64,000 bases of DNA, from positions 288,001-352,000 of the forward strand of contig CBDBFU010000015.1 in assembly GCA_965205025.1 (NCBI GenBank), written 5' to 3'. The notes under the pieces were generated by a model, which worked only from the letters and a program-made list of their open reading frames with translations, did not search any database and had not been told where the DNA came from. The position numbers and the translations under genes are program-made. Of the stretch, positions 33,339-60,277 are shown in pieces. Each line of letters starts with the position of its first letter. Position 1 is the stretch's first letter. Source of the DNA: Candidatus Poribacteria bacterium. GTDB lineage: Bacteria > Poribacteria > WGA-4E > WGA-3G.

Positions 33339-33782
33339 TCAAATCTGTTTCTGCTCATAACCTGACTGAATCTGCTCAATTGCAGTGATTGCTCCTTGCC
33401 GGACAAGGGCTGATGTGTCGTTTTGAGCAAGTTCTTTAAGTTTTGGCAAACTGAGTGTAGCTTCTAATTTCCCAAGTGCGACAGCGACAAAATAGCGTAC
33501 ATCGGAATCCTCATCCTCAAGTGCATTGATTAATATTTCAGTATCCGCTTGTGTTGCTATATGTCTATCCGCATCGCCTATATTTATAAGGGATTGTGCT
33601 GCAATCCGTCGTGAATGTATATCACCATGTAGAAGTGATGCAATGAGTTCATCATTATCATTTGATATAGCAGACAAGTTATCCCAATCACAATCCAGAC
33701 AAAACCAAGAGTTTTCATCCAACTTCTGGATGTTTTTCTTGCCACACTGTGGACATTTATTATATAATTGATAGCTATCCAT
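33339..33782 (-). CDS. Zinc-ribbon plus HEAT/PBS repeat protein
   Basis: CPQC..CLDC; LINALEDEDSDVRYFVAVALGKL. ATG at 33782 overlaps the upstream stop (TGATG). Confidence 0.75.
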   Translation of the reverse strand: MDSYQLYNKCPQCGKKNIQKLDENSWFCLDCDWDNLSAISNDNDELIASLLHGDIHSRRIAAQSLINIGDADRHIATQADTEILINALEDEDSDVRYFVAVALGKLEATLSLPKLKELAQNDTSALVRQGAITAIEQIQSGYEQKQI

Positions 33783-34153
33783 CAAATATTCATTGCCTCC
33801 ATTTCTGGTAGGTCTCTCCATATTTCAGGACCTTCTGGTTTGAAGTTTATTGTCGCGATGAACTGCATTCCGTGATAAAAGTTAATTTTGAATTTTCCAC
33901 CACCGTAATTCTGTTTAAGATATTCCAGTGGAGCATCTATTAATGGTCCCATTTCATCGGCATAGTAAAAGGCGAGTGCTTTGAACTTTACAGTGTTTCC
34001 CACAGGTTCCTGTACCAAGAGTTGTGCAGATGTTGCAGGAAATAACACTTGAAATGCATCCCATAAGTCTGCAACCGTGGGATTATCCTTACCGATTCGT
34101 TTTTTGAAGTCATTCTCAAGATATTCTGAGAATGTGTTGAATACCCAGTCCAT
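33782..34153 (-). CDS. Hypothetical protein
   Basis: 123-aa ORF with protein-like composition, translationally coupled to the HEAT gene. Confidence 0.7.
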   Translation of the reverse strand: MDWVFNTFSEYLENDFKKRIGKDNPTVADLWDAFQVLFPATSAQLLVQEPVGNTVKFKALAFYYADEMGPLIDAPLEYLKQNYGGGKFKINFYHGMQFIATINFKPEGPEIWRDLPEMEAMNI

Positions 34154-34192: not shown

Positions 34193-34762
34193 TCAAAGAT
34201 CAACACGCCTATAGATTTCCTTTAATGATAATTTACAACTGATGGTAGAAAGAATAAGAATATCTGTTGGATCTTCTAATGTGACCAATTCCCATTCTGT
34301 TCCTTGCATAACATAATGCTCAAGCGAGATTTTGTCTTGTGCTACGAGGATATACTCTTTTAATGATGGTAACTGCTTATAGTATTCAAATTTCTCACCC
34401 CTATCGTATTCCTCAGTAGAAGGTGAAAGCACTTCTATGATTATGACAGGATTTAGAAGAGTATCGAATGAATCATCTTCGAATTCAGGTTCATCACAAT
34501 AAACAATAACATCTGGATAAAAATAAGAAACATCTGGTGAGGTTTTTACACGCAAATCGTTTGTTACTACTCTACATTCTGATTCCCGTAATTGGATGTT
34601 GAGTTCAGTAGCTATATCTACCGTAATAAGACCGTGTGTAAGGCTGGCACCAGACATTGCAAAAATCTCTCCAAGGAAATACTCGCTCTTGTAAGCAGCT
34701 TTACGCTCTAATACAAGATATTCGTCTGGTGTAAAATGTGTTCTTGCTCCAATTGATGACAT
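34193..34762 (-). CDS. Uma2 family PD-(D/E)XK endonuclease
   Basis: KSEY..GEIFAMSGAS..H, FYPDV, IEVLSPSTEEYDRGEKF..Y, EYILVAQD. Confidence 0.9.
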   Translation of the reverse strand: MSSIGARTHFTPDEYLVLERKAAYKSEYFLGEIFAMSGASLTHGLITVDIATELNIQLRESECRVVTNDLRVKTSPDVSYFYPDVIVYCDEPEFEDDSFDTLLNPVIIIEVLSPSTEEYDRGEKFEYYKQLPSLKEYILVAQDKISLEHYVMQGTEWELVTLEDPTDILILSTISCKLSLKEIYRRVDL

Positions 34763-34851: not shown

Positions 34852-35421
34852 TCAAAGATCAACACGCCTATAGATGTCCTTTAATGGGAATTTACAGCTG
34901 ATAGTAGAAAGTATAAGAATATCTGTTGGATCTTCTAAGGTGGCCAATTCCCATTCTGTTCCTTGTATAACATAATGTTCAACTAAGATTTTGTCTTGTG
35001 CCACGAGGATATACTCTTTCAAGGTGGATAACTGTTTGTAATACTCAAATTTCTCACCCCTATCGTATTCCTCAGTAGAAGGTGAAAGCACTTCTATGAT
35101 TATGACGGGATTGATAATTGAATCCATAAAATCATCTTCAAACTTGGGTTCATTACAAGCAACAACTACACCAGGATAGAAATATGCCTCTAAATGATTA
35201 ATCCATACTCGCATGTCGCTGGAATATACTTCGCAATCTTGTTCCCATAACTGATTGTTTATTTCAGTAGCAATATCAAGGGTTATAAGATTATGGGCAC
35301 GGCTGGCACCAGACATTGCTACTATCTCTCCACGGAAATACTCGCTCTTGTATGCGGCTTTGCGTTCTAATACAAGATATTCGTCTGGTGTAAAATGTGT
35401 TCTTGCTCCAATTGATGACAT
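34852..35421 (-). CDS. Uma2 family endonuclease, tandem copy with PD replaced by PG
   Basis: Same length (570 bp) and same MSSIGARTHF start as 34193..34762; FYPGV replaces FYPDV. Confidence 0.85.
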   Translation of the reverse strand: MSSIGARTHFTPDEYLVLERKAAYKSEYFRGEIVAMSGASRAHNLITLDIATEINNQLWEQDCEVYSSDMRVWINHLEAYFYPGVVVACNEPKFEDDFMDSIINPVIIIEVLSPSTEEYDRGEKFEYYKQLSTLKEYILVAQDKILVEHYVIQGTEWELATLEDPTDILILSTISCKFPLKDIYRRVDL

Positions 35422-35606
35422 ATTGTCTCTAATATATTGATGGATAGTATTCAACAATCCAATAGGGATACCATATCGGTATAATCCAATGGCTTTTCTT
35501 ATCAAACCCGATTCAAGCACTAACTTATAGATTAAAATCCTGGTGCCTTCAAGAAGTTCTTCCAGTCGAAATCGGGCAGAGGGAACTCCTCCGTGGCTTT
35601 ACATTG

Positions 35607-36020
35607 TCAGAATGTGGATGCCTGTTCAAAGAAATCTATATCAACACGTTCAACTTGTGCTGAACGGGCATTTTCTGCTACACGTTGAACGACCATTTCT
35701 CTAACAAAAGGAATAGGAATCCGTTTAACTCTGTGTACGACTTCTTCAGTACAAGGGACATTTGTGTTATCAAGAAATGGACCATCCACCTTTGGAATTT
35801 CGGCAGGATGATCACATGTCTCTGGCACCAATTGTTGTAATCGCATTGATACATAATCAGTGACCCATTGTTGGAAATCCTCCGTACCCCCACCATCAGC
35901 AACTGCAGTTTGCGATGGTTGTTCCAACTTATCATTTATGCTTGTCAAAAGCGTCTCTAACCGTTCTAATCTATCTTCAACATTTGTGAGTCGTTCTTGA
36001 ACCTTGTTTTGCCCACTCAT
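35607..36020 (-). CDS. Coiled-coil protein with a degenerate C-terminal PCP_red-like domain
   Basis: N-terminal heptads; CTEEVVHRVKRIPIPFVREMVVQRVAENARSAQVERVD; AAGGAG RBS. Confidence 0.65.
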   Translation of the reverse strand: MSGQNKVQERLTNVEDRLERLETLLTSINDKLEQPSQTAVADGGGTEDFQQWVTDYVSMRLQQLVPETCDHPAEIPKVDGPFLDNTNVPCTEEVVHRVKRIPIPFVREMVVQRVAENARSAQVERVDIDFFEQASTF

Positions 36021-36029
36021 ATTTACTCC

Positions 36030-36758
36030 TTAAATAGCCCAGTATTTCCAAAGATCTTCTGGAATTTCGTACCGAATCTCTTCTCGTTGTTTATGGTGGT
36101 ATCGAGCAAATATACCAACACGAGGTATGTCTCTGATATTACCAGAACCCGTATGACATAAATAAGCGTGCCATAGCACAACATCCCCTGCTGCCCCGAT
36201 AAACTCGCGTGGTCCCTCTGGTGATGAATCTGAGAAGAGATGCCATCCCCATCCTTCAATATCCCTAAAACTTCCATCTACTTGTTCAGGATACTTAAGG
36301 AAGTATTCGTGGGTTGTATGATGACTCTTTGGCCAAAATACGAATGCTCCACCACTGGGTTCAACATCATAGAGATAGGTTGTTGCCCCCATCATAAACG
36401 GACTCCAACCACCTGGACCATAGGCATCAATGTGACCACTTCCCGGCATAGACCATTCATCATCTTTATTTGGCCATTTCACTAATGGTGATCCCCCACC
36501 ACCTGTAAAGTGTCCTCCACCTAATTGCTCAATTATCGTCTGCATTTCAGGTAATTGACCAAATTGTGGTGAGAAACCGAAGTTCTCCACTACATAATTA
36601 TCGGGCCATGTCTCTGGAGTTTCCAAGCTGGAATCAAAATGCTTCCATATCTGTTCCCGCCATCCGTTAATTATATCTGTATCTATAAGATTTTCAAGTA
36701 TAAGATATCCATCTTCTTGAAAGGATGTAATTTGTTCTGGTGATAGCATACAATGCAC
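36030..36758 (-). CDS. PhyH family dioxygenase with canonical HxD motif
   Basis: FQEDGYLILENL, GHIDAY, WPKSHH, GDVVLWHAYLCH. Confidence 0.85.
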   Translation of the reverse strand: MHCMLSPEQITSFQEDGYLILENLIDTDIINGWREQIWKHFDSSLETPETWPDNYVVENFGFSPQFGQLPEMQTIIEQLGGGHFTGGGGSPLVKWPNKDDEWSMPGSGHIDAYGPGGWSPFMMGATTYLYDVEPSGGAFVFWPKSHHTTHEYFLKYPEQVDGSFRDIEGWGWHLFSDSSPEGPREFIGAAGDVVLWHAYLCHTGSGNIRDIPRVGIFARYHHKQREEIRYEIPEDLWKYWAI

Positions 36759-36803
36759 CTCTACTATTTATATCAACGACTGTATGTGATTTGTCCAAAT
36801 ATT

Positions 36804-38105
36804 TTAACGTCGTGGTCTAAAAGAGGGAATTCCTGTTTTATCAAACCGTTTTTTGACAGTCTGCATGAGTTCAGGTGTAATTTCATGATGTCCGTTTTCC
36901 CGTGCATATTTTTCAACACTCTTGACAACCATTCCCCGGGCAAATGAAGGTACGCGTTTTAGTCTTTGTTCTGCAGCCTCATTCCAGGTGAGATCATACT
37001 CTGGTTCTGATGCAAAGGCAGTCCGTTTTTCAAATTGAATAGGTTGTTTTTCTTGTCCTGGTTGATATTCACAAGATTCATCCGCAGCAAGGTAATTATT
37101 CGTAGTAGCATACGCGCGTGCTCTACAACCTCCACAAACCTCTTTAAATTCACAAGCACCACACTTTCCTTCAAGACGATTTCTATCCCTCAAATCGTGA
37201 AAGGTTTCAGAATCATTCCACAGTTTGACGAAACTTTCTTCTTTTAGATTACCGACACTTACTGGAAGATATGGACAAGGTGTAAGCTCCCCTTCAGGAC
37301 TAATACGACAGTAGTAGATACCACATGGACAAGTTCCACTTGGGTAACCTTGAAGAAATGCGGAATCGGACTGTTGTTCATAGATAACACGTTTGTAATG
37401 TGGAGCACATTTCGCTGCTATTAACATTTTCCCACTATATTCTGACTGTAATTGAAACATGGTCTCTAACATTTTCTCATATTGTATAGGAGTGATATCC
37501 ATAACAGTTTTCCCTCTTCCTGTCCGAACAAGAAAATAGAGATTTAGAACTTTCGCCCCCAACTGATATGCATATTCAACAATCTGTGGAATCTCATCGT
37601 AATTCCATTGTGTGACGGATGTTTGTACGAGAAAATCAAGTTTGGCACGTTTTAGTGCTTCTACACCATTCATGGTTGCTTTCCATGCGCCTTCCATTCC
37701 ACGAAATTTATCGTGACTCGTAGGTTGTATGGAATCAATACTCAAACCTGCGCCTGTAACACCGTTTTGTTGCATTTTCTCAACAACTTCATCATTGAGC
37801 AAAACCCCATTTGTTCCCATTACCACAAGGAATCCAGTGTCAGAAGCATATTTTGAAATTTCCAGAATATCTGGTCGTAATAACGGTTCTCCACCTGTGA
37901 GGATAAGTAGTATATTTGGATTGATTTCAGCAATTTCATCAATTACATTAAAACATTGTGATTGGGTTAATTCTGTGTCTCTTACGTATCCTTGAGGAAA
38001 TTCTTCAGTATCAACAAAACCTGCGGGAAGATAGCAGTGTGTACATTTAAGATTACACAACCGGGTTATATTCCAAGAGACTGCCTGAACTTTAGTTTTT
38101 TCCAT
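36804..38105 (-). CDS. Radical SAM/SPASM protein (AhbD/NirJ-like) with C-terminal PCP_red-like domain
   Basis: CNLKCTHCY, LTGGEPLLR, CAPHYKR; SPASM CPCG..CPY..CGACEFKEVCGGCRARA; tail WNEAAEQRLKRVPSFARGMVVKSVEKYARENG. Confidence 0.85.
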   Translation of the reverse strand: MEKTKVQAVSWNITRLCNLKCTHCYLPAGFVDTEEFPQGYVRDTELTQSQCFNVIDEIAEINPNILLILTGGEPLLRPDILEISKYASDTGFLVVMGTNGVLLNDEVVEKMQQNGVTGAGLSIDSIQPTSHDKFRGMEGAWKATMNGVEALKRAKLDFLVQTSVTQWNYDEIPQIVEYAYQLGAKVLNLYFLVRTGRGKTVMDITPIQYEKMLETMFQLQSEYSGKMLIAAKCAPHYKRVIYEQQSDSAFLQGYPSGTCPCGIYYCRISPEGELTPCPYLPVSVGNLKEESFVKLWNDSETFHDLRDRNRLEGKCGACEFKEVCGGCRARAYATTNNYLAADESCEYQPGQEKQPIQFEKRTAFASEPEYDLTWNEAAEQRLKRVPSFARGMVVKSVEKYARENGHHEITPELMQTVKKRFDKTGIPSFRPRR

Positions 38106-38564
38106 TTAAATTCTTAATAGCAATGCCAGTGCGATAACAATTAATCCTGAAAAGAGTGTTAAATGTCCGAATAGATTGATATGTGTTGGTATGCTGATAC
38201 TGCTATTGGGTGGTGCTACTTCAAGTTGTTTACGATATAGAGAACTGTATAAACCCCAAAATAGAGCCATCAATCCGAATGCTCCTAATTTTGCAGCAGA
38301 GAAAATCATATATTCGGCACTTAATTTCATATCGTTGTTCCAAGCAACAATAAACACAACGATTGCACCAGTTGTATATAGTACATGTATCATCAATGAG
38401 ATGATACCACGAAATCGATTGTGTATTTTAAGTAGGTCTTGCGTTATCAAGTTCTGTCGAACTATTGGCATTGTAATTAATGTTGTGAAGAAAACACCTC
38501 CAAACCAAATTATTGCTGAAGTTAGATGAATAAACCTGATAGAGAGTTCTACTATCGTCCGCAT
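38106..38564 (-). CDS. Four-TM membrane protein, CopD/DUF4149-like
   Basis: FIHLTSAIIWFGG in the first helix; four hydrophobic segments. Confidence 0.65.
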   Translation of the reverse strand: MRTIVELSIRFIHLTSAIIWFGGVFFTTLITMPIVRQNLITQDLLKIHNRFRGIISLMIHVLYTTGAIVVFIVAWNNDMKLSAEYMIFSAAKLGAFGLMALFWGLYSSLYRKQLEVAPPNSSISIPTHINLFGHLTLFSGLIVIALALLLRI

Positions 38565-38638
38565 TGTTTATATCAGATTATCCACTGTATTCTAAGATTA
38601 TTCTGTTTCCAGGTATCCATAAGACTTCAGATAACTAA

Positions 38639-39334
38639 TTAAGATTGCGATTGCATACGAGCGATCTGTTCTCTAAGTTCAACGACTTCTGCTTCAGCAG
38701 TATCAGCTCGTTTTGCTTCCTGTTCTGCTCGGGTTTCTGCTGCTTCTGCGGGGGTTTGTAACCACTCACTCGTAGATGGATTATAAATACCTAACCCTTC
38801 ATCCAATACTTGGAAATCTAAGCCGATTGAGGTAGCATGGATACCGTTCTCACCTTGGGGTAAATTGACATAATTGCCATCTTTTAGCTCAAATCCCATC
38901 AATTGCGATGGTAGATATAGATCTTCAGCATCATATAGGAAATAGTTTTGTATTTTTAGTGCTGCATAAATCTCGATCTTGTCAGTTAAGTCTTTATCGT
39001 AAGTGTTCTTGCTACTGAACTCCATCACAAATTCTGGTGTCTTCCCTTCTTCCCATACCTTATAAGTTCTGCGTTGTTTCATACCTACACCGAAAGAGAC
39101 CAAGACATCAGGTGATATAGATTTAGTTGGCAAACCTTCTTCGTAATATATCAGAATATCACCTGATACATAGACAGTTGGATCTGTTGCGTAGAATGCT
39201 TCAATAACGTGTAACGTCCTGATTAACTGACTTCTGTGTAGATCGCTTGCAGCCATTGGCTTTCCATCTTCTTCAGGATATAATGAATCTGTAGGGACAA
39301 AGGTGAGTTTTTTCTTTTCTCCGTTAGCCACCAT
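38639..39334 (-). CDS. Uma2 family endonuclease with C-terminal coiled coil
   Basis: YPEEDGKPMAASDLH, ISPDVLV, PEFVMEFSSKNT..KD; tail AETRAEQEAKRA. ATG at 39334 follows AGGAGG. Confidence 0.88.
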   Translation of the reverse strand: MVANGEKKKLTFVPTDSLYPEEDGKPMAASDLHRSQLIRTLHVIEAFYATDPTVYVSGDILIYYEEGLPTKSISPDVLVSFGVGMKQRRTYKVWEEGKTPEFVMEFSSKNTYDKDLTDKIEIYAALKIQNYFLYDAEDLYLPSQLMGFELKDGNYVNLPQGENGIHATSIGLDFQVLDEGLGIYNPSTSEWLQTPAEAAETRAEQEAKRADTAEAEVVELREQIARMQSQS

Positions 39335-39446
39335 TGATAATCCTCCTGACGTTAGAAATATTACACACAAAGGTTAAGAGTTGACATCTTCCAAGTAGGT
39401 TAATTATAGTCTTAATAACTTGGACTCATCAAACCAATTTGTGGGT

Positions 39447-39968
39447 TTAGAACTGTGCAGGGAAGTTCCCACGTGCTTGATCCATTACCTCGGCAGTGAT
39501 TTCTGTATGTCCATTTTCTTTTGCGAAACTTTCAATCCCCATTTTTGCCATTGGTCGAACAAACGCAGGTATCCGTTCTAAACGATCTAACGCGTCTTGT
39601 GTCCATTCAATACCTTCAGTTTTAGGTTCGGATTCCTCTTCGTAAGCTTCAGAAATAACGGAGGTGAAGGGACATTTCCCACCTTCAGTTTCACCTGTAT
39701 TTGTATCGAATGTTGGGTTTGGCATCGAATCTTCTTTACCTGTTTGCAGTTGGGAACGGACCATCTGCATCGGTTGTGCAGCTTCATTATTGCCACCAAG
39801 CTTTAAATCCATCGATTTCAGCATTTGTGTTTCGGATGGATTTAAGAACATTGCTATTTCTGTAAAACAGTCAGGACATTCGAAAACAGCGGTAATAGAT
39901 CCTTGTTCAGGACGGGTTACATCCTTAAATTTCATTGCAGTTTCACATTCTATACATAGGAATTTCAT
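39447..39968 (-). CDS. Zinc-ribbon, CP-motif and PCP_red-like domain protein
   Basis: CIEC...CPDC; GGKCPF; WTQDALDRLERIPAFVRPMAKMGIESFAKENGHTEITAEVMDQA. Confidence 0.8.
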   Translation of the reverse strand: MKFLCIECETAMKFKDVTRPEQGSITAVFECPDCFTEIAMFLNPSETQMLKSMDLKLGGNNEAAQPMQMVRSQLQTGKEDSMPNPTFDTNTGETEGGKCPFTSVISEAYEEESEPKTEGIEWTQDALDRLERIPAFVRPMAKMGIESFAKENGHTEITAEVMDQARGNFPAQF

Positions 39969-40015
39969 TTTTTATCTCCATAAATGTTGTAGGAGAAGTT
40001 ATGTTCAATCACATG

Positions 40016-40903
40016 TTAAGTTAGTGTGGTAAAGTATTTTTGTATATTATGAGCTGTCTCAACGATAGCTTCACTTGCCGGATTATTGGGGAATTGTTCT
40101 AAATAGGGTATTCCACTGTCATTACACTGTGATAGTTTTGGATCAAAGGGTATCTTACCGAGTAAAGTGAATTGGAAAGTATTTTCAACAGAATCTTCAT
40201 TAGAAAAGAGTGATTCACTCTCACCACAATGATGACAAACATAGTATGACATATTTTCTACAACCCCAATAATTGGCACCTTAAGGACGTCCCTCGCCAT
40301 CGTCACAGACTTCTTTACAATCAGTTGTGATACATCTGAGGGAATAGTTACAACAACCACACCACTAAGAGAGGGTATCAGTTCAACGACGTTTGCTAAA
40401 CGTTCTGAACCAGGTGGTAAATCAAGGAGGAGATAATCTAACTCTTCCCATTCTGTATCTCCTATAAATTCTCGTAATGCGCCAACCTCCATTGTACTAC
40501 GCCAAGTAAATGCATCCTTCTGAGAATGTGCATTCCATAATACTGGTGCATGATCTTCGGATAGGAGTAGATCCATTGAGATGACTTTTACTCCGAGTGA
40601 GGTGATTGCTGGCTTGACACCTGTTGAAGTATATTCTAAATTAGTATCTCGTACTCCCATCATTTTCGCAATTGATGGACCGTTTATATCTGCATCAACA
40701 ACACCTACAGAACAACCTGCTAAAGTAAATGCGGTAGCTATATTGGCGGTGACAGCACTTTTACCGACACCCCCCTTTCCACTCATTATTGCTATAGTAT
40801 ATTTTACAGAGTTTAACCGTTGATTTACTCTGTTTGCTTGTGCTTTAACTTGTCCAACGATGTTAGAGCCAGCATCATCGGGTAGTTCCTTGTAGCTTTT
40901 CAA
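40016..40903 (-). CDS. mrp: Mrp/ApbC/NBP35 family P-loop ATPase (Fe-S carrier)
   Basis: SGKGGVGKS, DADINGPS, LDYLLLDLPPG, GVVENMS..CHHC, LGKIPFDP. Confidence 0.9.
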   Translation of the reverse strand: MKSYKELPDDAGSNIVGQVKAQANRVNQRLNSVKYTIAIMSGKGGVGKSAVTANIATAFTLAGCSVGVVDADINGPSIAKMMGVRDTNLEYTSTGVKPAITSLGVKVISMDLLLSEDHAPVLWNAHSQKDAFTWRSTMEVGALREFIGDTEWEELDYLLLDLPPGSERLANVVELIPSLSGVVVVTIPSDVSQLIVKKSVTMARDVLKVPIIGVVENMSYYVCHHCGESESLFSNEDSVENTFQFTLLGKIPFDPKLSQCNDSGIPYLEQFPNNPASEAIVETAHNIQKYFTTLT

Positions 40904-42213
40904 TTTTTCTGTCCAATTGCATACAAGGCATCATAACTTCGTAGGTATAGTGTGCCATTTAATATAACAGGAGATGCTGCGATTTCTTCGTCAATATTAT
41001 TTGTAGCAACTATCTCAAAGTCTCTACCTGCCTTCACAACATTTACAACACCATCTCTTGCGGTTAGGTATATATGTCCGTTTGCATATACTGGAGATGA
41101 ACGGTGTCTATGTCGATGTGTCTGGTGTCTATAGAGTTGCTCACCTGTTTTTGCGTCAATACAGATCAGATCACCATTCTCACGACACAAATATACTAAA
41201 CCGTCGTGTATTAGAGGTGAAGGGACATCAGGTGTACCTCTACTTAGTTTCCACTTTTGCCATTGAGTATCGGTAATATCACCACTTCCTGATGGGTCAA
41301 TTCCTATCACAGGACCATTTTTTGCTGAAGGCACAACTATTAACCCCTCAGTTGAAACTGGTGAAGCGACCAATCGGAAGGATCGGTTGTAATTTTCTGC
41401 TGGATTGAATCCACCACATCGCCATATTTCGTTTCCATCATCAAGCTTATGTGCTGTGACATAGTCTGCCCCATGGACAACAAGAAATTCCCGTTCAGCG
41501 TCCCTATATAACATAGGTGATGTATATGCCTGTTCAGATTCTTGTATAGCATCACTCTTCCGCTTCTGTTTCCATACCTCTTCACCGTTCATCTTATCAA
41601 GTGCAAGAACTAACCATGCATTACTATGAATTAGGTGCAAGTATAACCTATCTTTGTAGAGGAGCGGTGAAGTTGACATTATAAAATATAGGTTGAATTC
41701 CCCGTACCGTTCTTGCAGGTTTGTCTTCCATACCTGATTTCCATCATAATCATAACAAACCAGATCCCCATTCCCCAAAAATGCCCATACATGTTTACCA
41801 TCAGTGGTAGGTGACGGTGCAGCGAAGTTAACTTCATCCCCACGAGATCTTCTATTGCCTGTTGCTAACGTGCGTTTCCAAACTTCATCTCCTTGTGTGT
41901 TAACACAAATCAATACCACATTAGCACCATCAGCACAGGTAAGAAAGATTTTATCATCCCAAATTACAGGTGTGGAAGCACCCTCTCCAGGCAGTGGTAG
42001 ACGCCATTTAACATTTTCTGTTTGACTCCATTTTTTTGGAACTTCGGTGGCATTACTTATTCCATCGTTGTTTGGTCCACGCCACTGATGCCAATTATTA
42101 CTTACAGCGTTTTCTGTATCAGCAACAACATGTGTCCAACTGGTCTTTAAGAAAAAGAGAATTAAAAGACTTAATACTGTAATTACTCGATTTATAGAAA
42201 TTTTATTGTTCAT
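40900..42213 (-). CDS. PQQ-binding-like beta-propeller protein
   Basis: Signal peptide; WHQWRGP..DG, NVKWRLPLPG.G.STPVIW; repeated SP.... strands. Confidence 0.85.
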   Translation of the reverse strand: MNNKISINRVITVLSLLILFFLKTSWTHVVADTENAVSNNWHQWRGPNNDGISNATEVPKKWSQTENVKWRLPLPGEGASTPVIWDDKIFLTCADGANVVLICVNTQGDEVWKRTLATGNRRSRGDEVNFAAPSPTTDGKHVWAFLGNGDLVCYDYDGNQVWKTNLQERYGEFNLYFIMSTSPLLYKDRLYLHLIHSNAWLVLALDKMNGEEVWKQKRKSDAIQESEQAYTSPMLYRDAEREFLVVHGADYVTAHKLDDGNEIWRCGGFNPAENYNRSFRLVASPVSTEGLIVVPSAKNGPVIGIDPSGSGDITDTQWQKWKLSRGTPDVPSPLIHDGLVYLCRENGDLICIDAKTGEQLYRHQTHRHRHRSSPVYANGHIYLTARDGVVNVVKAGRDFEIVATNNIDEEIAASPVILNGTLYLRSYDALYAIGQKN

Positions 42214-42323
42214 TACATCCCTCCTGCATCAGAGTTAATATGTGTGTTATTCATGATTCTTAACACCTTAGAGCCCTACGAATTGTTAATCCTACATGTA
42301 TTTAAAATAACGTGAGTTCAATA

Positions 42324-42753
42324 TCACCTATTTTCGTCTGTCCACAAACCACGATCCGGACCGTTCCACTGAAATGGAACTATTTTCGACAACTTACCGA
42401 CGTTGTACTCAGGAAATGTATATCCTGCCTTCAACAACATAACCTTCATTTGTAAAAAGTGGAAATTCAAGATTTTGGAGAGAGGAGGTTGGTTCAATTT
42501 CCAACCAAACGTCAAGTTCACCGAGAACGGTCTTATAGAAGAAGTCTGCAGAATGGGATTCATGCTTCAGAATCATGATAACCCCTGATTGTTTCACTTC
42601 TCCATTTGATGAGGATACTTTTAAGGCAACTAACAAGTCTTCTTGTGGAGGAGGATCAGATTTTACTTTAAACCAGAGACCTTGTGTGGAACCTTCTGCA
42701 GCACCTTCATTTGGACCGAGGATCTGAAAAGTAATAGTGGGTAAATCAGCCAT
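42324..42753 (-). pseudogene. Probable frameshifted hypothetical gene
   Basis: MADLPTITF...NEGYVVE continues naturally as AGYTFPEYNVGK...ENR* if one G near 42429 is removed. Confidence 0.45.
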
Positions 42754-42813
42754 ATCGATCCTATTGCTATTAATACTCAGCAGAAACATCTATTGAATAC
42801 TGGATTAACCTTT

Positions 42814-44715
42814 TTACTCTTGCGTCTGCTGATAATATTCACCTAATACTTCATTTGCCAGACTTCTTCCATCCTCAATAACGCGTGCGGCAAAATCGAG
42901 AGTTATTTCAGTAATTTTTGCTTCATTTGCTCTCTGTTCTATGCGGGTTTGGGTGATATTACGCATGAAACCTTCAGGGACTAAGTTTAACCGGTCAATT
43001 GCTTCTTCTGTCCATTGTAAAGAACTTGCAAAGTTGTTGCCGTCTTGAGTGTTTTGTGATTCGGTCTGAGTTTGCATGGCTCTAAGTTCCGGGGCATCTT
43101 CACGAACTGCTGCTGCTTCCCCCATGCTTTCGTCAATAATGTGAGTTGCAAAATCATTTGTAATAGTATGTATTTTTTGAGAACGAGCAGATTTTTCAAT
43201 TCGTGCTTTGACATTTCGACGCATGTAGCCACGTGGAACGGTACGCAACGCCTTTTTCGCTTGTTCGGACCACTGTAGACGTACACCATCGAATGTTTCC
43301 TCTTCTTCTGCACCACCTTCATCAATAGCAATATGATCCAGAGAATCCTTATTAACCATCTGAAATCGTTCTGGGGGAGAACTGCATACGGGACAAACGA
43401 CAGGTTGTTGATTATGTGCAGCATACCCACATTCACCACAGATATATGTCTGGACATCACCTAATTCGATTACTTTCTGTTCAGCGATCTCTTTTGCCAC
43501 GCGTGTTAATTTCTCTGAAGCGCGTTGTGGCATAATTGCTTCCATAGCCTTTTCAATAACACTCTCTGTAATGACAGAATGTCCGCGTTCGATAGCAAAC
43601 CGATGCACAGCAGTCTTTGCTATACCGCGTACCAGAGGAGGCGCTTTCTCCATTCGATCCATTGCTTCTTGAGTCCATACTAATGTTTCCTCTGCTTTTA
43701 CATCTATTTGTGGGAAATATCGTTGACTTGATAGGAGTACATTACATGGTGCAAGACGTAGTAGATTCTCTGCAGTACTTCCAATATCCATTTCTTGTTC
43801 GCTATGGACACCGATGCGTCCTAAAACGAGTAACCATGGTTCTGTTTTACGGGTGTATTGTATTATTTTTTCGTAGGCTTTACCATCAAGTAGTGTGATT
43901 TTTAGATTATAGTCGTGTTCCTCTTTTGCAATAGAACGAGCGACTTCTAAGTGGGATTGATATATCTTCGCTAATCCAGTATCAATTACCTCTTCATGTA
44001 GTTGTTCCTGTTCTTTAAATCTGAATGTTCTTGCGGCGCGTTCAGTAAGTACGTTCACTACAGAGTTAAAAACGATATAGTGTAGATATGGATCGTATAC
44101 ACCGACAGCTTCTACCTGTTTGTTGAACTTTTGTCCGAGTTGGATAGCGGTTTTTAGTCCTGAAAACGATTCAGGACTTCCATCAATACCGACAAGAATG
44201 TTACCTTGCTGTTCTTCGATTGGGTCAAGGTTTCGCACTACGAGTGTATCGGTGGTAATCCGTCTAACAACGCGTTCAGTAACTCCACCGATTAGGCTAT
44301 CTTTTACTGCCCCCATCCCGAGTGCCCCCATAATTACGAGATCATAATCCCCTTCTTGGATATCTTCTACAAGCTTAATGTAGTGTTTCCCTTCAGGCAT
44401 TTGTGGTTCAAATGGTATATTGAACTTTTCACACTTCTTCTTCATAACCTCAAGGTAGGAGTCAGAAATGAGTTGGAGTCCCATAGTAATAAGTGTGTCA
44501 TGTATACGTCGCTGTTTTTCGAGTTCAACTTCATCCTGATATTCTTCTGGAAGGGTATACTCCATCTGTTTAAAGCGTACGTCATGCATTTTCGCTGCGT
44601 AAACGTGGGATCCTACCAACTGTGAATCGAAGTGTTTGGCGAATTCCACAGCTAAGTCGATACTTGCATCAGAATAATCGGAGTTGTCAACAGGGACGTA
44701 TATTTTTTTCATCAT
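42814..44715 (-). CDS. Multidomain protein: USP-USP-PCP_red-rubredoxin-like-PCP_red-PCP_red
   Basis: KKIYVPVDNS..DLVIMGALGMG; NILVGIDGS..IGSTAENLLR; YICGECGY..CPVC; three W(T/S)xxA..P...R helical domains. Confidence 0.85.
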   Translation of the reverse strand: MMKKIYVPVDNSDYSDASIDLAVEFAKHFDSQLVGSHVYAAKMHDVRFKQMEYTLPEEYQDEVELEKQRRIHDTLITMGLQLISDSYLEVMKKKCEKFNIPFEPQMPEGKHYIKLVEDIQEGDYDLVIMGALGMGAVKDSLIGGVTERVVRRITTDTLVVRNLDPIEEQQGNILVGIDGSPESFSGLKTAIQLGQKFNKQVEAVGVYDPYLHYIVFNSVVNVLTERAARTFRFKEQEQLHEEVIDTGLAKIYQSHLEVARSIAKEEHDYNLKITLLDGKAYEKIIQYTRKTEPWLLVLGRIGVHSEQEMDIGSTAENLLRLAPCNVLLSSQRYFPQIDVKAEETLVWTQEAMDRMEKAPPLVRGIAKTAVHRFAIERGHSVITESVIEKAMEAIMPQRASEKLTRVAKEIAEQKVIELGDVQTYICGECGYAAHNQQPVVCPVCSSPPERFQMVNKDSLDHIAIDEGGAEEEETFDGVRLQWSEQAKKALRTVPRGYMRRNVKARIEKSARSQKIHTITNDFATHIIDESMGEAAAVREDAPELRAMQTQTESQNTQDGNNFASSLQWTEEAIDRLNLVPEGFMRNITQTRIEQRANEAKITEITLDFAARVIEDGRSLANEVLGEYYQQTQE

Positions 44716-44744: not shown

Positions 44745-45008
44745 CTACTCTATTTTCATATCATTACACGGTTTATAGTGATAGCCAATCCATGTTCCAA
44801 TGATATGTGCGAGTAATGTAGCTGGCCATAAATACACTAATGCTGTCTGCCAATGCCATTGAAGAATAAAACGACGTACTACAAAGTTTAGGACTATTGG
44901 AATATATAAGCATCTACCCCAGGGACGACTAAATTTTCTATATCGAACCCGATAAAATCCGAAAGGAAAATGTATCAGAAAAGCAAGAATAGAGATTAAA
45001 AGGTTCAG
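44745..45008 (-). CDS. Small membrane protein (87 aa) with probable CTG start, absent from the ORF track
   Basis: Reads (M)NLLISILAFLIHFPFGFYRVRYRKFSRPWGRCLYIPIVLNF...KIE*. GAGGA RBS; CTGA overlap with the SCO stop. Confidence 0.7.
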   Translation of the reverse strand: MNLLISILAFLIHFPFGFYRVRYRKFSRPWGRCLYIPIVLNFVVRRFILQWHWQTALVYLWPATLLAHIIGTWIGYHYKPCNDMKIE

Positions 45009-45655
45009 TTATTTTCCTCATTCTTGAGTAGTTGCTTTATATCCTTTCGTATTTTCTGCATAGCAGCTTTACTGCGACTGTCATAGTAGTCATGTATTGT
45101 TCTATCGGGTTTTATGACCACGAATTTTCTACTATGTGGAAATACACCTTCATGATATGCAGCAGGTAATTTAAAACCATTGTTAGCTAAATTGTAAATC
45201 TGTTCCTTATCTCCCGTTAGGAAGTGCCAACTATCTTGTTTTGCTCCATAATCTAATGCATATTGAGAAAGAACTTGCGGTGTATCGCGTTCTGGGTCAA
45301 CAGTGATAGACACAAAAATGACCTTATCGTTTTCAATTTCTGCCTGTAGTTCTGCCATTTCTTGTGTCATAATTGGACAAATTGTTGGACAATTAGTAAA
45401 GATAAAATCGACAACCCATAATTTTCCATCCAAATCAGATATACCAAACGACATACCTTGTTGATTTGTTAGACTGAAATCAGGCACACTTGCCAATGGA
45501 GTATGTTCAGGTGCTTTATCATTTGAGTTTACAGATGACCAAAGTGTAATTCCTGCAACACAAAGAATAACTACACCTAATACTATCCAAGGAATAGAAC
45601 TTTTTTCGATTCTATGTGCCTCCTGATTAGGGTTTTCGTTAGGATTATCCATCAT
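45005..45655 (-). CDS. SCO1/SenC copper chaperone
   Basis: N-terminal TM; DFIFTNCPTICP, SITVDPERDTP, distal His in FPHS. Confidence 0.92.
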   Translation of the reverse strand: MMDNPNENPNQEAHRIEKSSIPWIVLGVVILCVAGITLWSSVNSNDKAPEHTPLASVPDFSLTNQQGMSFGISDLDGKLWVVDFIFTNCPTICPIMTQEMAELQAEIENDKVIFVSITVDPERDTPQVLSQYALDYGAKQDSWHFLTGDKEQIYNLANNGFKLPAAYHEGVFPHSRKFVVIKPDRTIHDYYDSRSKAAMQKIRKDIKQLLKNEENN

Positions 45656-45693
45656 TGCCTACCTATAGAATAGGAACAGGTTTAAATTTGATC

Positions 45694-46032
45694 TTAGTGA
45701 TCGGATGTATTTACTACTTCTGTCGGGGGTTTTTCCACACCTTCATGTCGTGAATCTGATGTTAAATCTGGTATTAACATAATCACCAGAAAGACACAGA
45801 TAAGAAATGGAGTAATTACAATTGCTGCTAAGGTCCGTTTCTCAAGTTTCAAATGCATGAAATAAGCTGCAACCAAGTATGCCTTCCCACATGCTAATCC
45901 AATGAGGATTATAGCTTTGAGAACTACTGAGTATTTAGGAATGGCTACTCCAATCTCAATAGCAGTTAGCACAGCCAACCATATAAAAATTAAAAAATAT
46001 CTTGGATGTTTGTGGTGTCCATCTTGAGCCAT
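45694..46032 (-). CDS. Cytochrome c oxidase subunit IV (COX4_pro-like)
   Basis: LAVLTAIE, KAYLVAAYFMHLK. Confidence 0.85.
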   Translation of the reverse strand: MAQDGHHKHPRYFLIFIWLAVLTAIEIGVAIPKYSVVLKAIILIGLACGKAYLVAAYFMHLKLEKRTLAAIVITPFLICVFLVIMLIPDLTSDSRHEGVEKPPTEVVNTSDH

Positions 46033-46044
46033 ATTTGTTTCCTC

Positions 46045-46695
46045 CTACAATAGATAGATAAAAGTGAAAACCATAATCCAAATTAGGTCAACAAAGTGCC
46101 AATACAGACCTACTATTTCAACTTCATGGTTGAAATCCGCAGTATAGCGTCCAGACCAACCATTTCTCAAAATTACAATAAGGTAAATCACTCCACCAGT
46201 TACATGTAGACCGTGAAATCCTGTGATTGCATAAAAAGTAGGTCCAAACAATGTTGATCCGCTGATCATAGCACCTGAAATACTGTGTTCAGGTATTCCA
46301 GTGAGTGTCAAACCGTGCGTAATCAAATGGTACCATTCATAGGCTTGTAATCCAAGGAATATGATACCTCCAAGGATAGTAAGTCCAAGAAAGTCACACA
46401 TTCTACCCACATTACCTTTTTGAATTGATTCTAACGCTTTTACCATTGTGACACTACTACAGATAAGTAAGAATGTCATAAAAGCAGTCAGGTTAATACC
46501 GAGTATATCACTTGGAGGAACCCATCCAATTATACCTGCTCCAGCACGGATTGCAGCATAGGCTGCAAGTAAAGCTCCAAATGACATGGTATCCCCTATT
46601 AAGAAGATCCACATCCCAAGTTTACCGAGACTGTCAGGTGTAAGCGATGGTTCGTATACGTCTTCAGAATGATCTAAAGTGGTAGCTTCTTCCAC
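46045..46695 (-). CDS. ctaE: Cytochrome c oxidase subunit III, copy 2
   Basis: KLGMWIFL, LLICSSVTM, FYAITGFHGLHV, GLYWHFVDLIW. Confidence 0.9.
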   Translation of the reverse strand: MEEATTLDHSEDVYEPSLTPDSLGKLGMWIFLIGDTMSFGALLAAYAAIRAGAGIIGWVPPSDILGINLTAFMTFLLICSSVTMVKALESIQKGNVGRMCDFLGLTILGGIIFLGLQAYEWYHLITHGLTLTGIPEHSISGAMISGSTLFGPTFYAITGFHGLHVTGGVIYLIVILRNGWSGRYTADFNHEVEIVGLYWHFVDLIWIMVFTFIYLL

Positions 46696-46792
46696 TATAC
46701 TTTACTCCTTTTTATTTGTTTCTGTCCGTTATTACAATTTGCTAAATGATTATAAGAACAATCAGTCTGTATGTATTTTGCGATGCCTCTTG

Positions 46793-47680
46793 CTAATGTG
46801 TTCCAACTTCAACTCGAGCATCAGCAATTTCTGCAATTTCAGTATCAATCTCAAATCCGATAAAGTTTCGTCCTTCCATACGTGCTGCGATACCGGTAGA
46901 ACCTGAACCAGCGAATGGATCACATACGACTGACCCTTCAGCGGAGAATATCCTAACTAAATGTCGTAGTAGCGGAACAGGCTTTGCAGCGATGTGTCCA
47001 AATTTCTCCCGTGGTTTAGTTACAGGTATCACAGTACCTGGAAATCTGTCGTTTTCTACAACTGGGTCCGACACATCAATAAGACCTGTTCGATGCTGAA
47101 GCCAATTGTCAACGAAAGTGCCTTCTCGTGGAGACTGTGCAAGAATAATAAGCTCCATTTGTGGCTTGAGTTGCGGTGTTTTTCTACCCCCCAAAACCTT
47201 AATTATTTTCTCCTTCTCATCCTCTGGCAACTTGCTTTTTCTTACGAAATGATCTTGTGTAAACGCTTTAGCTTGTCCTTCATATCGCCATGCTAACATG
47301 TCTCTAATTTCAAAACCTGCCTCTTCTATAGCAAGAGCAGAACGATGTGATAGTCTTGGATGTGAAAAACAGAGAACAAATCCACCTGGTTTAATTATTC
47401 GAAACCATTGTTCTGCGACAGGTTTCAAAAACCTGTATAGGTTATGTCCTTGTGCCCGATCAAATTTCATCCCTACTGGGATTCCACCGATTACCCCTTT
47501 TTTTAGTCTTGATTTGATTCGGTTTGTATCCCAATTGTCATCCAATCCATCCAGGAAATATGGAGGGTCAGTTAGGATTAGAGACACACTTCGCGATGCC
47601 AGCTTAGCCATTCCTTTTCTACAGTCAATATTCTGTACCCAGGAGTCAAAACTATTATTTTTTAAAGCATCGCTTGACAT
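46793..47680 (-). CDS. Orphan N4-C/N6-A DNA methyltransferase, beta-class motif order
   Basis: LILTDPPY (motif IV) precedes H.AAKP...VCDPFAGSGSTG (motif I) and FIGFEID. Confidence 0.9.
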   Translation of the reverse strand: MSSDALKNNSFDSWVQNIDCRKGMAKLASRSVSLILTDPPYFLDGLDDNWDTNRIKSRLKKGVIGGIPVGMKFDRAQGHNLYRFLKPVAEQWFRIIKPGGFVLCFSHPRLSHRSALAIEEAGFEIRDMLAWRYEGQAKAFTQDHFVRKSKLPEDEKEKIIKVLGGRKTPQLKPQMELIILAQSPREGTFVDNWLQHRTGLIDVSDPVVENDRFPGTVIPVTKPREKFGHIAAKPVPLLRHLVRIFSAEGSVVCDPFAGSGSTGIAARMEGRNFIGFEIDTEIAEIADARVEVGTH

Positions 47681-47702
47681 ATTCTTCCTTCAATGAAGCT
47701 GT

Positions 47703-47930
47703 TTATACATCCTTATTAGGGTTAGCACGTTTGTAGTGATAGAATACAGTACCCCCTACTACACCGAATACGGTGAATGGCATAGCCATCATAAAAAGAA
47801 CACTCCAATTAAAACCCTTTGCGATGGGTTCATCTAATTCTTTACAAGCAGGACATGCCTCAAGTGTAATGGGAATTGCTAAAATTACAAACCCAAGAAT
47901 GATTATCCATAGAAGACTTTTTTGTAACAT
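47703..47930 (-). CDS. Small membrane protein with CxxC in the cox cluster
   Basis: Signal-like N-terminus, ACPACKE, then TM GFNWSVLFMMAMPF. Confidence 0.75.
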   Translation of the reverse strand: MLQKSLLWIIILGFVILAIPITLEACPACKELDEPIAKGFNWSVLFMMAMPFTVFGVVGGTVFYHYKRANPNKDV

Positions 47931-47939
47931 ACATTTATC

Positions 47940-48530
47940 CTATGCCAGATATACTAATATATAGAGAATTGGCCAAAGAGCGACAACATAAATCCAATAT
48001 ATCGTACAGGTTTCTACACCAGTATGATGTGTGTGAGAGTACTTTAATGCTATAGCCTTTCCTGTAACTACCGCTAACCAGATTACAGCACCGAATACAT
48101 GGACAGCATGACATCCAATCAGTACATAGAAGATACCGCCATATATACCAGATTGTAATGTCAATCCTTTACCGATTAGTTGAATCCATTCACTTCCTTG
48201 AATCCCTAAGAAGAGTAGACCTAATACTCCAGTGAAAATCAACATATTTCGGAGTTGCTTAATTCTATCTTTCTGTATAGCACGCAACGCTTGAAACATT
48301 GTATATCCACTTATAATCAACAACACGGTGTTTATCCCTGTGACCAATCGTGGAAGATTAATTTCAGCGTGCGATAAAGGTGGCCAAGTAACACTCCCCA
48401 TTCTAAATACAAGAAAAGCACCAATCAAACCTACAAACAACATCGTCTCAGCACCGAGTAAGATAAAAATAGCCAATTTTGCATTACTCAATGGTCGACT
48501 TTCAGTTATTTCAATGTGAGTATGATTCAT
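47940..48530 (-). CDS. ctaE: Cytochrome c oxidase subunit III, copy 1
   Basis: KLAIFILLGAETMLF, NTVLLIISG, FYVLIGCHAVHV, YWIYVVALW. Confidence 0.85.
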   Translation of the reverse strand: MNHTHIEITESRPLSNAKLAIFILLGAETMLFVGLIGAFLVFRMGSVTWPPLSHAEINLPRLVTGINTVLLIISGYTMFQALRAIQKDRIKQLRNMLIFTGVLGLLFLGIQGSEWIQLIGKGLTLQSGIYGGIFYVLIGCHAVHVFGAVIWLAVVTGKAIALKYSHTHHTGVETCTIYWIYVVALWPILYILVYLA

Positions 48531-48548
48531 CTTTTCGAGTCTGTTCTC

Positions 48549-48830
48549 TTATCTTCCAGTTAATTGCCTTAATAGTCGAAATAATCGTCCAAATAATTGA
48601 TGAGTCGCCTTAATAATTGAAGAAATTATCATTATAAGTCCAGGACCAATTAGGAATATCCCAATCCCAGTTGCGACTATTGTCGTAACCCCAGAAACGA
48701 TAGTTTTAATTAGAGGAGGAACATCAACCTGCAAGATAATCCATAATGTTGCGAAGGCAAATAATACCAGAAACAGTAACCCTAAAAGCATTCCAAGCTT
48801 CAAATTTGCTATACGTCTCTCTTGTTGCAT
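48549..48830 (-). CDS. Small two-TM membrane protein
   Basis: Co-oriented within the operon; hydrophobic; AAGGTG RBS. Confidence 0.65.
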   Translation of the reverse strand: MQQERRIANLKLGMLLGLLFLVLFAFATLWIILQVDVPPLIKTIVSGVTTIVATGIGIFLIGPGLIMIISSIIKATHQLFGRLFRLLRQLTGR

Positions 48831-48852
48831 AAATTCACCTTTATATATTTAC

Positions 48853-50756: not shown

Positions 50757-50797
50757 ACAGAATCCCGCAGAAGCATCTTCCTATGACTCATGTTCAA

Positions 50798-52735: not shown

Positions 52736-52802
52736 AATTATCTTTACTCCTTTCGTAACCTATCAATCCTAAACCTGTTATGTTAGGTCACTCCTATAGA
52801 GT

Positions 52803-53468: not shown

Positions 53469-53547
53469 CAAATTCTCCTTAACATGTGCACATTAATTTG
53501 TTTTGCCACTTTATTTAAAGTGCACTTTGAATTCTTTTCCGAATCGT

Positions 53548-58665: not shown

Positions 58666-58705
58666 GGGTTATCTCCTATTGTGTTATCTTCTTTGAATTA
58701 TTCTA

Positions 58706-60262: not shown

Positions 60263-60277
60263 TCTCTTGTCCTCTGT

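Follow-up and report, generated by a model that had tools for sequence, protein, structure and literature searches.

A cassette of genes combining the small PCP_red domain with an Mrp-type ATPase lies in a stretch of 64,000 nucleotides from a sponge-associated Candidatus Poribacteria bacterium (contig CBDBFU010000015.1, C15 in our numbering, positions 288001-352000, in an assembly of 5.66 Mb). This whole stretch is called the window below. Its coordinates run from 1 to 64,000, and all cassette and oxidase genes are on its minus strand. We take four genes as the core of the cassette: a tandem USP protein with three PCP_red copies (USP_PCP3, 42814-44715), an Mrp/NBP35-type (Mrp/NUBPL-type) P-loop ATPase (the cassette Mrp, 40016-40903), a Zn-ribbon protein ending in PCP_red (ZnPCP, 39447-39968) and an AhbD/NirJ-like radical SAM enzyme with a SPASM domain and a C-terminal PCP_red (rSAM_PCP, 36804-38105). 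A further small gene, ccPCP (35607-36020), encodes a degenerate PCP_red behind a putative coiled coil, the latter being read from the heptad-like N-terminal sequence alone. It is very probable that these genes constitute a real, functionally coupled cassette with an Mrp of its own, whose role is probably cofactor supply for oxidases.

The oxidases in question are immediate neighbours. The SCO1 end (45005) of a heme-copper oxidase operon (45005-53471) is found directly upstream of USP_PCP3; the operon comprises COX2, COX1, CtaA, CtaB, two COX3-like genes, COX4 and SCO1, the COX3, CtaA and CtaB labels resulting from a reading of the open reading frames (ORFs) by eye, without a family search. Farther upstream, cytochrome c genes and a bd-like CydA homolog, recognised with Pfam, occupy 56148-62188, the CydA homolog itself being located at 60278-62188. 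The placement of the cassette beside oxidase genes, as given in a preliminary description made from the letters of the window alone, is therefore confirmed.

The PCP_red family (Pfam PF08369, gathering cut-off 32.5 bits) is detected in six segments, spread over four co-oriented genes; in the six-frame search, five of the six exceed the cut-off. In the protein scan, USP_PCP3 scores 96.5 bits over three stretches (E 9.2e-28), ZnPCP 65.3 bits and rSAM_PCP 57.4 bits; ccPCP stays under the cut-off with 23.4 bits (E 6.3e-5). A six-frame search of the whole 5.66 Mb genome returns six matches, all inside window positions 35619-43677, with scores of 67.9, 61.6, 47.9, 35.4 and 33.8 bits and, for ccPCP, 25.0 bits. 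The three copies of USP_PCP3 are placed at 43546-43677 (copy 1, 47.9 bits), 43153-43272 (copy 2, 35.4 bits) and 42892-43014 (copy 3, 33.8 bits), and the single ones at 39471-39605 in ZnPCP, 36852-36986 in rSAM_PCP and 35619-35747 in ccPCP. All six align over 49 columns with an invariant P, R and A, the alignment reading W-T-x-E-A...IP-x-F-V-R...IE...A...G...IT. The six motif copies in four co-oriented genes noticed in the preliminary description are thus real, one of them weak, and by Pfam scores and alignment they belong to a single homologous family, PCP_red, as it had supposed.

The copy of ZnPCP, the only one compared structurally, was modelled with AlphaFold2 (AF2) at a domain pLDDT (predicted local distance difference test) of about 84 and matches the solved small helical PCP_red fold. 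Foldseek gives template modelling (TM) scores of 0.69-0.74 to 2L09 and 2KRU, and the root mean square deviation to 2YNM_D is 1.1 Å over 49 columns. Entry 2YNM is a complex of the dark-operative protochlorophyllide reductase (DPOR) with bound L-protein, and the PCP_red part is present in the coordinates of its ChlB chain D. To our knowledge, PCP_red sits on every ChlB. The segments of the cassette consequently share Pfam family and fold with the C-terminus of ChlB/BchB, the stand-alone 2KRU and Nostoc Asr4154 (2L09). In contrast to DPOR, the nitrogenase-like ChlB body is absent here, the genome is devoid of ChlL/BchL or NifH, and the domain rides, in one to six copies, on USP, radical SAM, Zn-ribbon and coiled-coil proteins.

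The preliminary description had found no chlorophyll genes in the window, and this extends to the genome: the six-frame search yields no ChlB-sized ORF with PCP_red and the profile search no gene of the NifH/BchL family (best score 26 bits), chlN not having been searched separately. NCBIfam models of ChlB match over their last 55-95 positions only, with 27-58 bits against cut-offs of 490-912. We also considered PCP_red as a tetrapyrrole "lid" of BchB and dropped the idea: the domain maps to about residues 473-523 of the BchB chain, whereas the trans helix touching the substrate is formed by residues 398-420 according to the available part of PMC12022308, so that the two are different parts of the protein. 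The role of PCP_red in DPOR is not described in the accessible portions of PMC13474568, 10.1101/2025.02.17.634645, PMC12022308, PMC5443842 and PMC7948495, and the literature searched contained nothing on the function of the domain.

The cassette Mrp, correctly assigned to the Mrp/ApbC ATPases in the preliminary description, covers positions 2-245 of the 246 of PF10609 (241.8 bits) and contains the deviant Walker A motif GKGGVGKS. Residues S41-S49 are invariant in 49 orthologs, as is the CxxC pair C223 and C226, which is predicted to bind a cluster. In the Mrp/NBP35 family, this pair holds a bridging [4Fe-4S] cluster in the dimer. The nearest PDB chains are 2ph1, 3kb1, 8zkc and CFD1 (6g2g). Full-length PF10609, GKGGVGKS and CxxC are all shared with the Mrp/ApbC/NBP35/NUBPL carriers, including MrpORP of Desulfovibrio; the cassette Mrp differs from them in being paired with a Zn-ribbon adaptor. 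It also remains under the equivalog cut-offs of ApbC (NF008669, 174.6 against 348 bits) and MrpORP (NF041136, 238.2 against 450 bits).

A genome-wide profile search identifies two Mrp proteins, 38% identical to each other: a housekeeping copy at 351 bits and, at 236 bits, the cassette copy. The cassette copy does not have the N-terminal extension of its housekeeping paralog. Instead, it possesses an N-terminal arm of its own, 26 residues long (1-26), and about 12 residues inserted at 119-131 that are absent from the housekeeping copy and also missing in three of four PDB homologs. The arm (window 40826-40903) is conserved, with the consensus M-K-x-Y-x-D-I-x-x-D-G-G-S-x-V-x-G-Q-V.

We surveyed 176 Poribacteria genomes, grouped in families f1 (111 genomes), f2 (11) and f3 (29) and others (24); genome counts here, and locus counts below, are raised by kinship among the genomes. 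PCP_red occurs in 152 of the 176 (f1 111/111, f2 11/11, f3 28/29, others 1/24). An Mrp of the cassette type (E <= 1e-114) occurs in 108 of 111 f1, 11 of 11 f2 and 27 of 29 f3 genomes, and in none of the 24 of other families, among which 22 have a housekeeping-type match and two have none. The f1-f3 genomes without it are G126, G131 and G157, fragmented f1 assemblies with few PCP_red matches, G068, an f3 assembly in 910 contigs, and G063. In this phylum, PCP_red and the cassette Mrp therefore occur, or are missing, together. The sole PCP_red match outside f1-f3 (G050:C25:5929-6063) lies in a 524-residue ORF of a 79% complete assembly and may be a true ChlB.

Genome G063, one of the f1-f3 set and 94% complete, lacks PCP_red. 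Its oxidase genes COX2, COX1, CtaA, CtaB, both COX3 and COX4 are retained, together with stumps of the cassette (G063:C10:28000-62000): residues 1-44 of the USP protein, residues 1-133 of Mrp interrupted by stops, and residues 3-230 of the radical SAM enzyme with a frameshift; ZnPCP is gone. The cassette is thus lost as one unit, and the oxidase genes can survive its loss.

Twelve loci from ten Poribacteria genomes were compared for gene order. They resolve into two sub-modules, SCO1 / USP_PCP3 / (hyp126) / (propeller) / Mrp / ZnPCP and CopD-like / rSAM_PCP / (PhyH) / ccPCP / hyp123 / HEAT protein, which in one genus are megabases apart. Representative relatives of ZnPCP number 838 at a threshold of E <= 1e-3, falling to 334 when it is tightened to 1e-10. 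Separately, a scan over one genome per species confirmed 561 relatives, and neighbourhoods were counted in the best 80 of the 561, all from metagenome-assembled genomes. These 80 come from Rhodothermales, other Bacteroidota, Calditrichota, Latescibacterota, Marinimicrobia, Methylomirabilota/Rokubacteria, Entotheonella, TA06, a deltaproteobacterial metagenome-assembled genome and Poribacteria.

Mrp is encoded directly upstream of ZnPCP in 55 of the 80 loci, and in 52 of the 71 with 1200 nt or more of available sequence; the loci without an adjacent Mrp are mostly from Rokubacteria. The two genes share 4 nt, the stop of Mrp overlapping the start of ZnPCP, in 21 of 48 pairs. USP_PCP3 accompanies ZnPCP in 50 of the 80 loci, rSAM_PCP in 37 and hyp123 in 33. 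Many of them are flanked by COX or bd-like genes, and in Methylomirabilota and Calditrichaeota loci the cassette likewise has cytochrome c or bd-like genes at its side. In genomes with a ZnPCP gene on its own, the other three core genes are grouped elsewhere, beside oxidase genes, in five cases out of five; the neighbours of that group are COX2-COX1-CtaA-CtaB-COX3-COX3-COX4 or bd-like and cytochrome c genes. Lone ZnPCP genes in Rokubacteria and Calditrichaeota loci have unrelated neighbours, except for a CopD/UPF0093-like ORF in Calditrichaeota. The cluster is hence conserved with mrp in many phyla, in keeping with the idea in the preliminary description.

The domain architecture is kept in all five radical SAM and all five USP orthologs of other phyla, the USP proteins elsewhere carrying three to six copies of PCP_red. 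The ccPCP protein is 64-83% identical within Poribacteria, and ORFs of 137-142 residues with PCP_red matches of 24-25 bits exist in three of the five genomes with a lone ZnPCP. A scan for promoters and terminators in the window gave counts equal to those of shuffled sequences.

In the literature searched we found no description of this gene set. An archaeal USP survey, in its available part, mentions proteins with USP and PCP_red as an unusual automatic annotation (PMC12159084). The parts of the cassette belong to known families; the ensemble, the pair of adaptor and Mrp and the repeated use of PCP_red are undescribed in that literature.

The Zn ribbon of ZnPCP is made of C5, C8, C31 and C34, all four invariant among its relatives, as is the N-terminus M-K-F-L-C. 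A conserved linker follows (P-M-x-x-x-R-x-x-L), and the relatives have in common a C-P-F motif and the PCP_red end. Pfam (E <= 0.01) detects PCP_red alone in ZnPCP and no HypA (PF01155). In the AF2 model, a three-stranded ribbon, whose nearest structures in Foldseek are the ribbons of ZPR1 and NrdR, is connected by a disordered linker to the well-folded PCP_red domain.

We predicted the complex of two Mrp chains and one ZnPCP chain from alignments of 49 rows each, along with three controls. The three runs scored 0.62, 0.62 and 0.67 and the best control 0.00; contacts common to the runs amount to at least 65%, with a partner pLDDT of at least 63. In the calibration of the score, 58 of 80 solved complexes reach the mark, as do 2 of 110 mismatched pairs; this applies only roughly to a job of three chains with our own alignments. 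The predicted confident interface covers residues 1-80 of ZnPCP, that is, the ribbon and the linker (65-80), in which P66 and L74 are invariant and M67 and R71 nearly so. On the Mrp side it covers residues 1-22 and 91-149, with W123, W134, R135, E139, R144 and D149 invariant. This surface largely consists of the parts specific to the cassette paralog, namely the insertion and the N-terminal arm. Altogether, it is likely from these models that the cassette Mrp binds ZnPCP.

The preliminary description had gone further and proposed that PCP_red itself is a shared tag docking each of its carriers onto Mrp, as ChlB would dock with the related ATPase ChlL. Binding of Mrp to one tagged protein is indeed predicted, but not through the tag: no PCP_red residue (122-166) is named in the interface, residues left unnamed by the tool being uncertain. 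As the confident contacts are those of ribbon and linker, the idea is left unsupported in this form. The three to six copies on each USP protein would moreover be odd for a single ATPase dimer. In favour of such docking, the PCP_red of ZnPCP superposes on the ChlB of the L-protein-bound 2YNM, no other ChlB or BchB chain being among the matches listed, and the cassette Mrp and PCP_red were gained and lost together. In addition, the D-G-G-S-x-V-x-G-Q-V part of the Mrp arm looks like the N-terminal D-G-E-G-S-V-Q-V-H segment that caps the Fe-S cluster of BchL, according to the available part of PMC7948495, although with so short a motif this is a resemblance only. On balance we regard docking through PCP_red as improbable.

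The same pair of proteins could be read as a metallochaperone, in which Mrp and ZnPCP, like HypB and HypA, would drive the insertion of copper, iron or heme into the oxidase at the expense of a nucleotide, instead of carrying Fe-S clusters. The cassette adjoins SCO1 and a CopD-like membrane protein, and the partner of the ATPase is a small four-cysteine ribbon protein whose invariant M-K-F-L-C belongs to the predicted interface. Furthermore, the PDB matches of the cassette Mrp comprise its homologs 3vx3/5aun-5auq (78.5 bits); we take these entries to include the HypA complex of the HypB-HypA nickel chaperone pair of Thermococcus. That pair likewise joins a MinD/Mrp-class ATPase to a small zinc-finger protein. 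However, ZnPCP has no HypA match in Pfam and we saw no conserved His-rich site; Mrp keeps the invariant CxxC of Fe-S carriers; the locus has no hydrogenase context; and the radical SAM enzyme is left unexplained. We give this alternative little credence.

USP_PCP3 contains two USP domains (Usp PF00582, 123.5 bits in two stretches), the first PCP_red, a rubredoxin-like four-cysteine knuckle (RUBY_RBDX, 21 bits in Pfam) and then the second and third PCP_red. Orthologs from different phyla share 52-59% identity, the mean over alignment columns being 67%. The knuckle residues C426, C429, C441 and C444 are invariant across phyla, and so are H37, H44, H72, H212, E237, H240, H255, H304 and H379, placed in long helical inserts. 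These histidines and the glutamate suggest an unrecognised metal or cofactor site of the protein's own. Nucleotide binding is predicted from G-x2-G-x9-G-G-V-T in the first USP domain and G-x2-G-x9-G-S-T (G-R-I-G...G-S-T) in the second. Among solved structures, the USP part is closest to ATP-binding tandem USPs such as TB31.7 (2jax, 3cis). USP_PCP3 resembles such proteins, for instance M. tuberculosis Rv2623 (TB31.7), in its two USP domains and departs from Rv2623 by its conserved helical inserts, its rubredoxin-like knuckle and its three PCP_red copies.

On these grounds the cassette might be regulatory: the tandem USP would sense ATP or redox state, PCP_red would control the activity or assembly of the oxidase at low oxygen, and the enzymes would be secondary. 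Besides the ATP-binding relatives and the visible nucleotide motifs, USPs adjoining respiratory operons of Nitrospira marina rise at low oxygen, as stated in the available part of PMC8115632, which does not establish them as PCP_red proteins. Nevertheless, it would be unusual for a radical SAM enzyme or a P-loop Fe-S carrier to act as a regulator, and USP_PCP3, with its 52-59% identity and many invariant His and Glu residues, looks more catalytic or cofactor-binding. A primarily regulatory role is, in our opinion, distinctly improbable.

The radical SAM enzyme matches Radical_SAM (83.4 bits) and SPASM (36.5 bits) in Pfam, and C-N-L-K-C-T-H-C (CxxxCxxC) can be read in its sequence. The best of 83 matching NCBIfam families is AhbD (TIGR04545, 326.3 bits, positions 2-339 of 339, cut-off 500), followed by NirJ2 (303.4 bits). 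At 326 bits, though under the cut-off, the match sustains the AhbD-like call of the preliminary description. Both AhbD and rSAM_PCP have the Radical SAM and SPASM domains, and the alignment spans the full model; rSAM_PCP is distinguished by an extra C-terminal linker of about 90 residues plus PCP_red, by its position in an oxidase locus with USP and Mrp, and by its 326 bits against 500.

No other AhbD-like gene occurs in the genome, which also has a ChdC-like gene (64.7 bits) and one ferrochelatase; profile searches of the genome found no HemF and no HemN above its cut-off. This inventory fits a coproporphyrin-dependent pathway. According to the available part of PMC13564367, AhbD occurs in organisms with this pathway that have no other enzymes of the Ahb set, where it may take the place of ChdC, which requires oxygen; the set of a lone AhbD-like gene, a ChdC-like gene and a ferrochelatase, with neither HemF nor a true HemN, is reminiscent of these bacteria. 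AhbD-type enzymes hold several [4Fe-4S] clusters (PMC13564367, same part), and a dedicated Mrp would thus have a client.

That rSAM_PCP is instead a peptide or protein maturase, a SPASM enzyme that modifies a small neighbour protein or an oxidase subunit recognised through PCP_red, is highly improbable: the only PDB relatives at E <= 1e-10 are the peptide-modifying SkfB and PqqE, and many maturase families of ribosomally synthesized and post-translationally modified peptides figure among the weaker NCBIfam matches, but the best family matches are tetrapyrrole enzymes (AhbD, NirJ2, TIGR04053 and NirJ) and no conserved precursor-like peptide was seen. The PDB ranking itself cannot favour AhbD or NirJ, because no chain so named was returned at E <= 1e-10.

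The remaining genes of the locus are accessory or patchy. Between USP_PCP3 and Mrp, a hypothetical protein of 126 residues (hyp126, 42409-42789) has no Pfam or NCBIfam match and has tblastn matches in Poribacteria loci only. It is followed by a PQQ-like beta-propeller with a hydrophobic N-terminus (40900-42213; PF13360, 83.6 bits), whose stop overlaps the Mrp start by 4 nt; the propeller is present in 11 of the 80 loci, ten from Poribacteria and one from another bacterium with a Poribacteria-like gene order. The PhyH-type Fe(II)/2-oxoglutarate dioxygenase-like protein (36030-36758; PF05721, 35.4 bits) was likewise matched in Poribacteria loci only.

A CopD-like membrane protein with four transmembrane segments (38106-38564; PF05425, 23.4 bits, under the cut-off) has its stop abutting the start of rSAM_PCP, and in Poribacteria its gene always adjoins that of the radical SAM enzyme. 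In the Calditrichaeota locus, the CopD-like ORF (L065:7759-8223) stands directly after ZnPCP and has a weak match to UPF0093, presumably the HemJ protoporphyrinogen oxidase family.

The Uma2-family endonuclease-like gene (38639-39370; PF05685, 52.5 bits) is found in some Poribacteria loci and in no locus of other phyla; given this patchiness, it is probably an insertion, outside the system. Two more Uma2-family genes, for putative restriction endonucleases, are close tandem paralogs (34193-34762 and 34852-35520). Uma2 genes in or beside the cassette come and go among the Poribacteria relatives and look like insertions.

Past ccPCP, a protein of 123 residues (hyp123, 33782-34153) without a Pfam match is 89-95% identical in the nearest Poribacteria loci, 75-79% in the other two families and 40-47% to cassette neighbours in Rhodothermales, Calditrichia, Latescibacterota and Marinimicrobia; its best score in the ESM Atlas is 0.79, to unnamed clusters. 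A Zn-ribbon/HEAT-repeat protein (33339-33821; HEAT_2, 46 bits) comes next. In other phyla, conserved proteins of 256-288, 198 and 126-134 residues intervene between the radical SAM and USP genes (L016:2458-4010, L014:3000-4904, L028:4159-5162), the one of 256-288 residues being 75% identical between Calditrichia and Latescibacterota. They have no Pfam match and no BLAST match to proteins of the window, apart from a small ferredoxin-like 4Fe-4S ORF at this place in the Rhodothermales locus.

On the oxidase side, the order going downstream is the bd-like CydA homolog, three cytochrome c genes (one with EB_dh), an ABC-2 transporter, the oxidase operon and the cassette. A DNA methylase (N6/N4; 46793-47680) is inserted between the two COX3-like genes; it is found at the same place with 81-83% identity in two relatives (L086 and L090), most other loci being without it. 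Two paralogs of about 260 residues with a C-terminal CarboxypepD_reg-like beta-sandwich (55267-56055 and 62291-63055) flank the cytochrome c and bd-like genes; in other phyla, homologs of the two are encoded before COX1 or after COX4.

We now propose, tentatively and with somewhat less than even confidence, a mechanism for the whole cassette: a module for Fe-S delivery and scaffolding that serves an AhbD-like, oxygen-independent heme b synthase feeding the oxidases. ZnPCP would clamp Mrp with its Zn ribbon and linker, gripping the insertion and the N-terminal arm that are specific to this Mrp paralog, and this would leave the C-terminal PCP_red of ZnPCP free. PCP_red would then be a shared protein-protein module uniting Mrp, bound to its adaptor, with the scaffolding USP protein, the coiled-coil protein and the radical SAM enzyme. 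Mrp would load or repair the Fe-S clusters of that enzyme in an aerobe. The radical SAM enzyme would work as a coproheme decarboxylase needing no oxygen (heme b synthase) beside ChdC of the coproporphyrin-dependent pathway, feeding CtaB/CtaA and the adjacent oxidases; its heme b would enter heme o and heme a synthesis. The ATP-binding USP domains may gate the process under low oxygen or low energy. That the tagged proteins mature the neighbouring heme enzymes, as the preliminary description had inferred, is plausible.

Several points weigh against this delivery and scaffold mechanism. A contact from one PCP_red to another is purely inferred. PCP_red has no conserved His, Cys, Met or Tyr fit to ligate metal or heme. 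The AF2 model of USP_PCP3 (pLDDT 73, predicted TM score 0.51) says little on how its PCP_red copies pack, and the scores of the Mrp-ZnPCP complex express the model's own confidence and are not a measurement. As for the enzyme, its activity is predicted from sequence, with an AhbD score under the cut-off and a nearly equal one for NirJ2, and the ChdC-like match covers half of the profile (positions 92-188 of 189). Concerning the linkage, ZnPCP is separated from Mrp in all 14 Rokubacteria loci (Mrp adjacent in 0/14); the oxidase operon of G063 is apparently intact without the cassette, so oxidase genes can persist alone; and the joint presence of cassette and oxidase in f1-f3 may be a single evolutionary event.

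In its broadest form, the proposal would make PCP_red a general assembly module that unites a dedicated Mrp and its adaptor, a tandem USP having its own metal or redox site, and a heme b synthase independent of oxygen, in hundreds of species of at least eight phyla, as an unrecognised system of terminal-oxidase biogenesis. We judge this possible, if rather unlikely. If it is true, ChlB would have borrowed its unexplained C-terminal domain from this assembly module. The cassette would also open a first way to the function of the PCP_red domain. The predicted paralog-specific interface between Mrp and its adaptor can be mutated, and the AhbD-like enzyme can be assayed with coproheme. How terminal oxidases get their hemes, and how oxygen-labile radical SAM enzymes stay loaded in aerobes, are open questions; the cassette is a concrete and widely distributed candidate for both the heme supply of oxidases and the loading of radical SAM enzymes.

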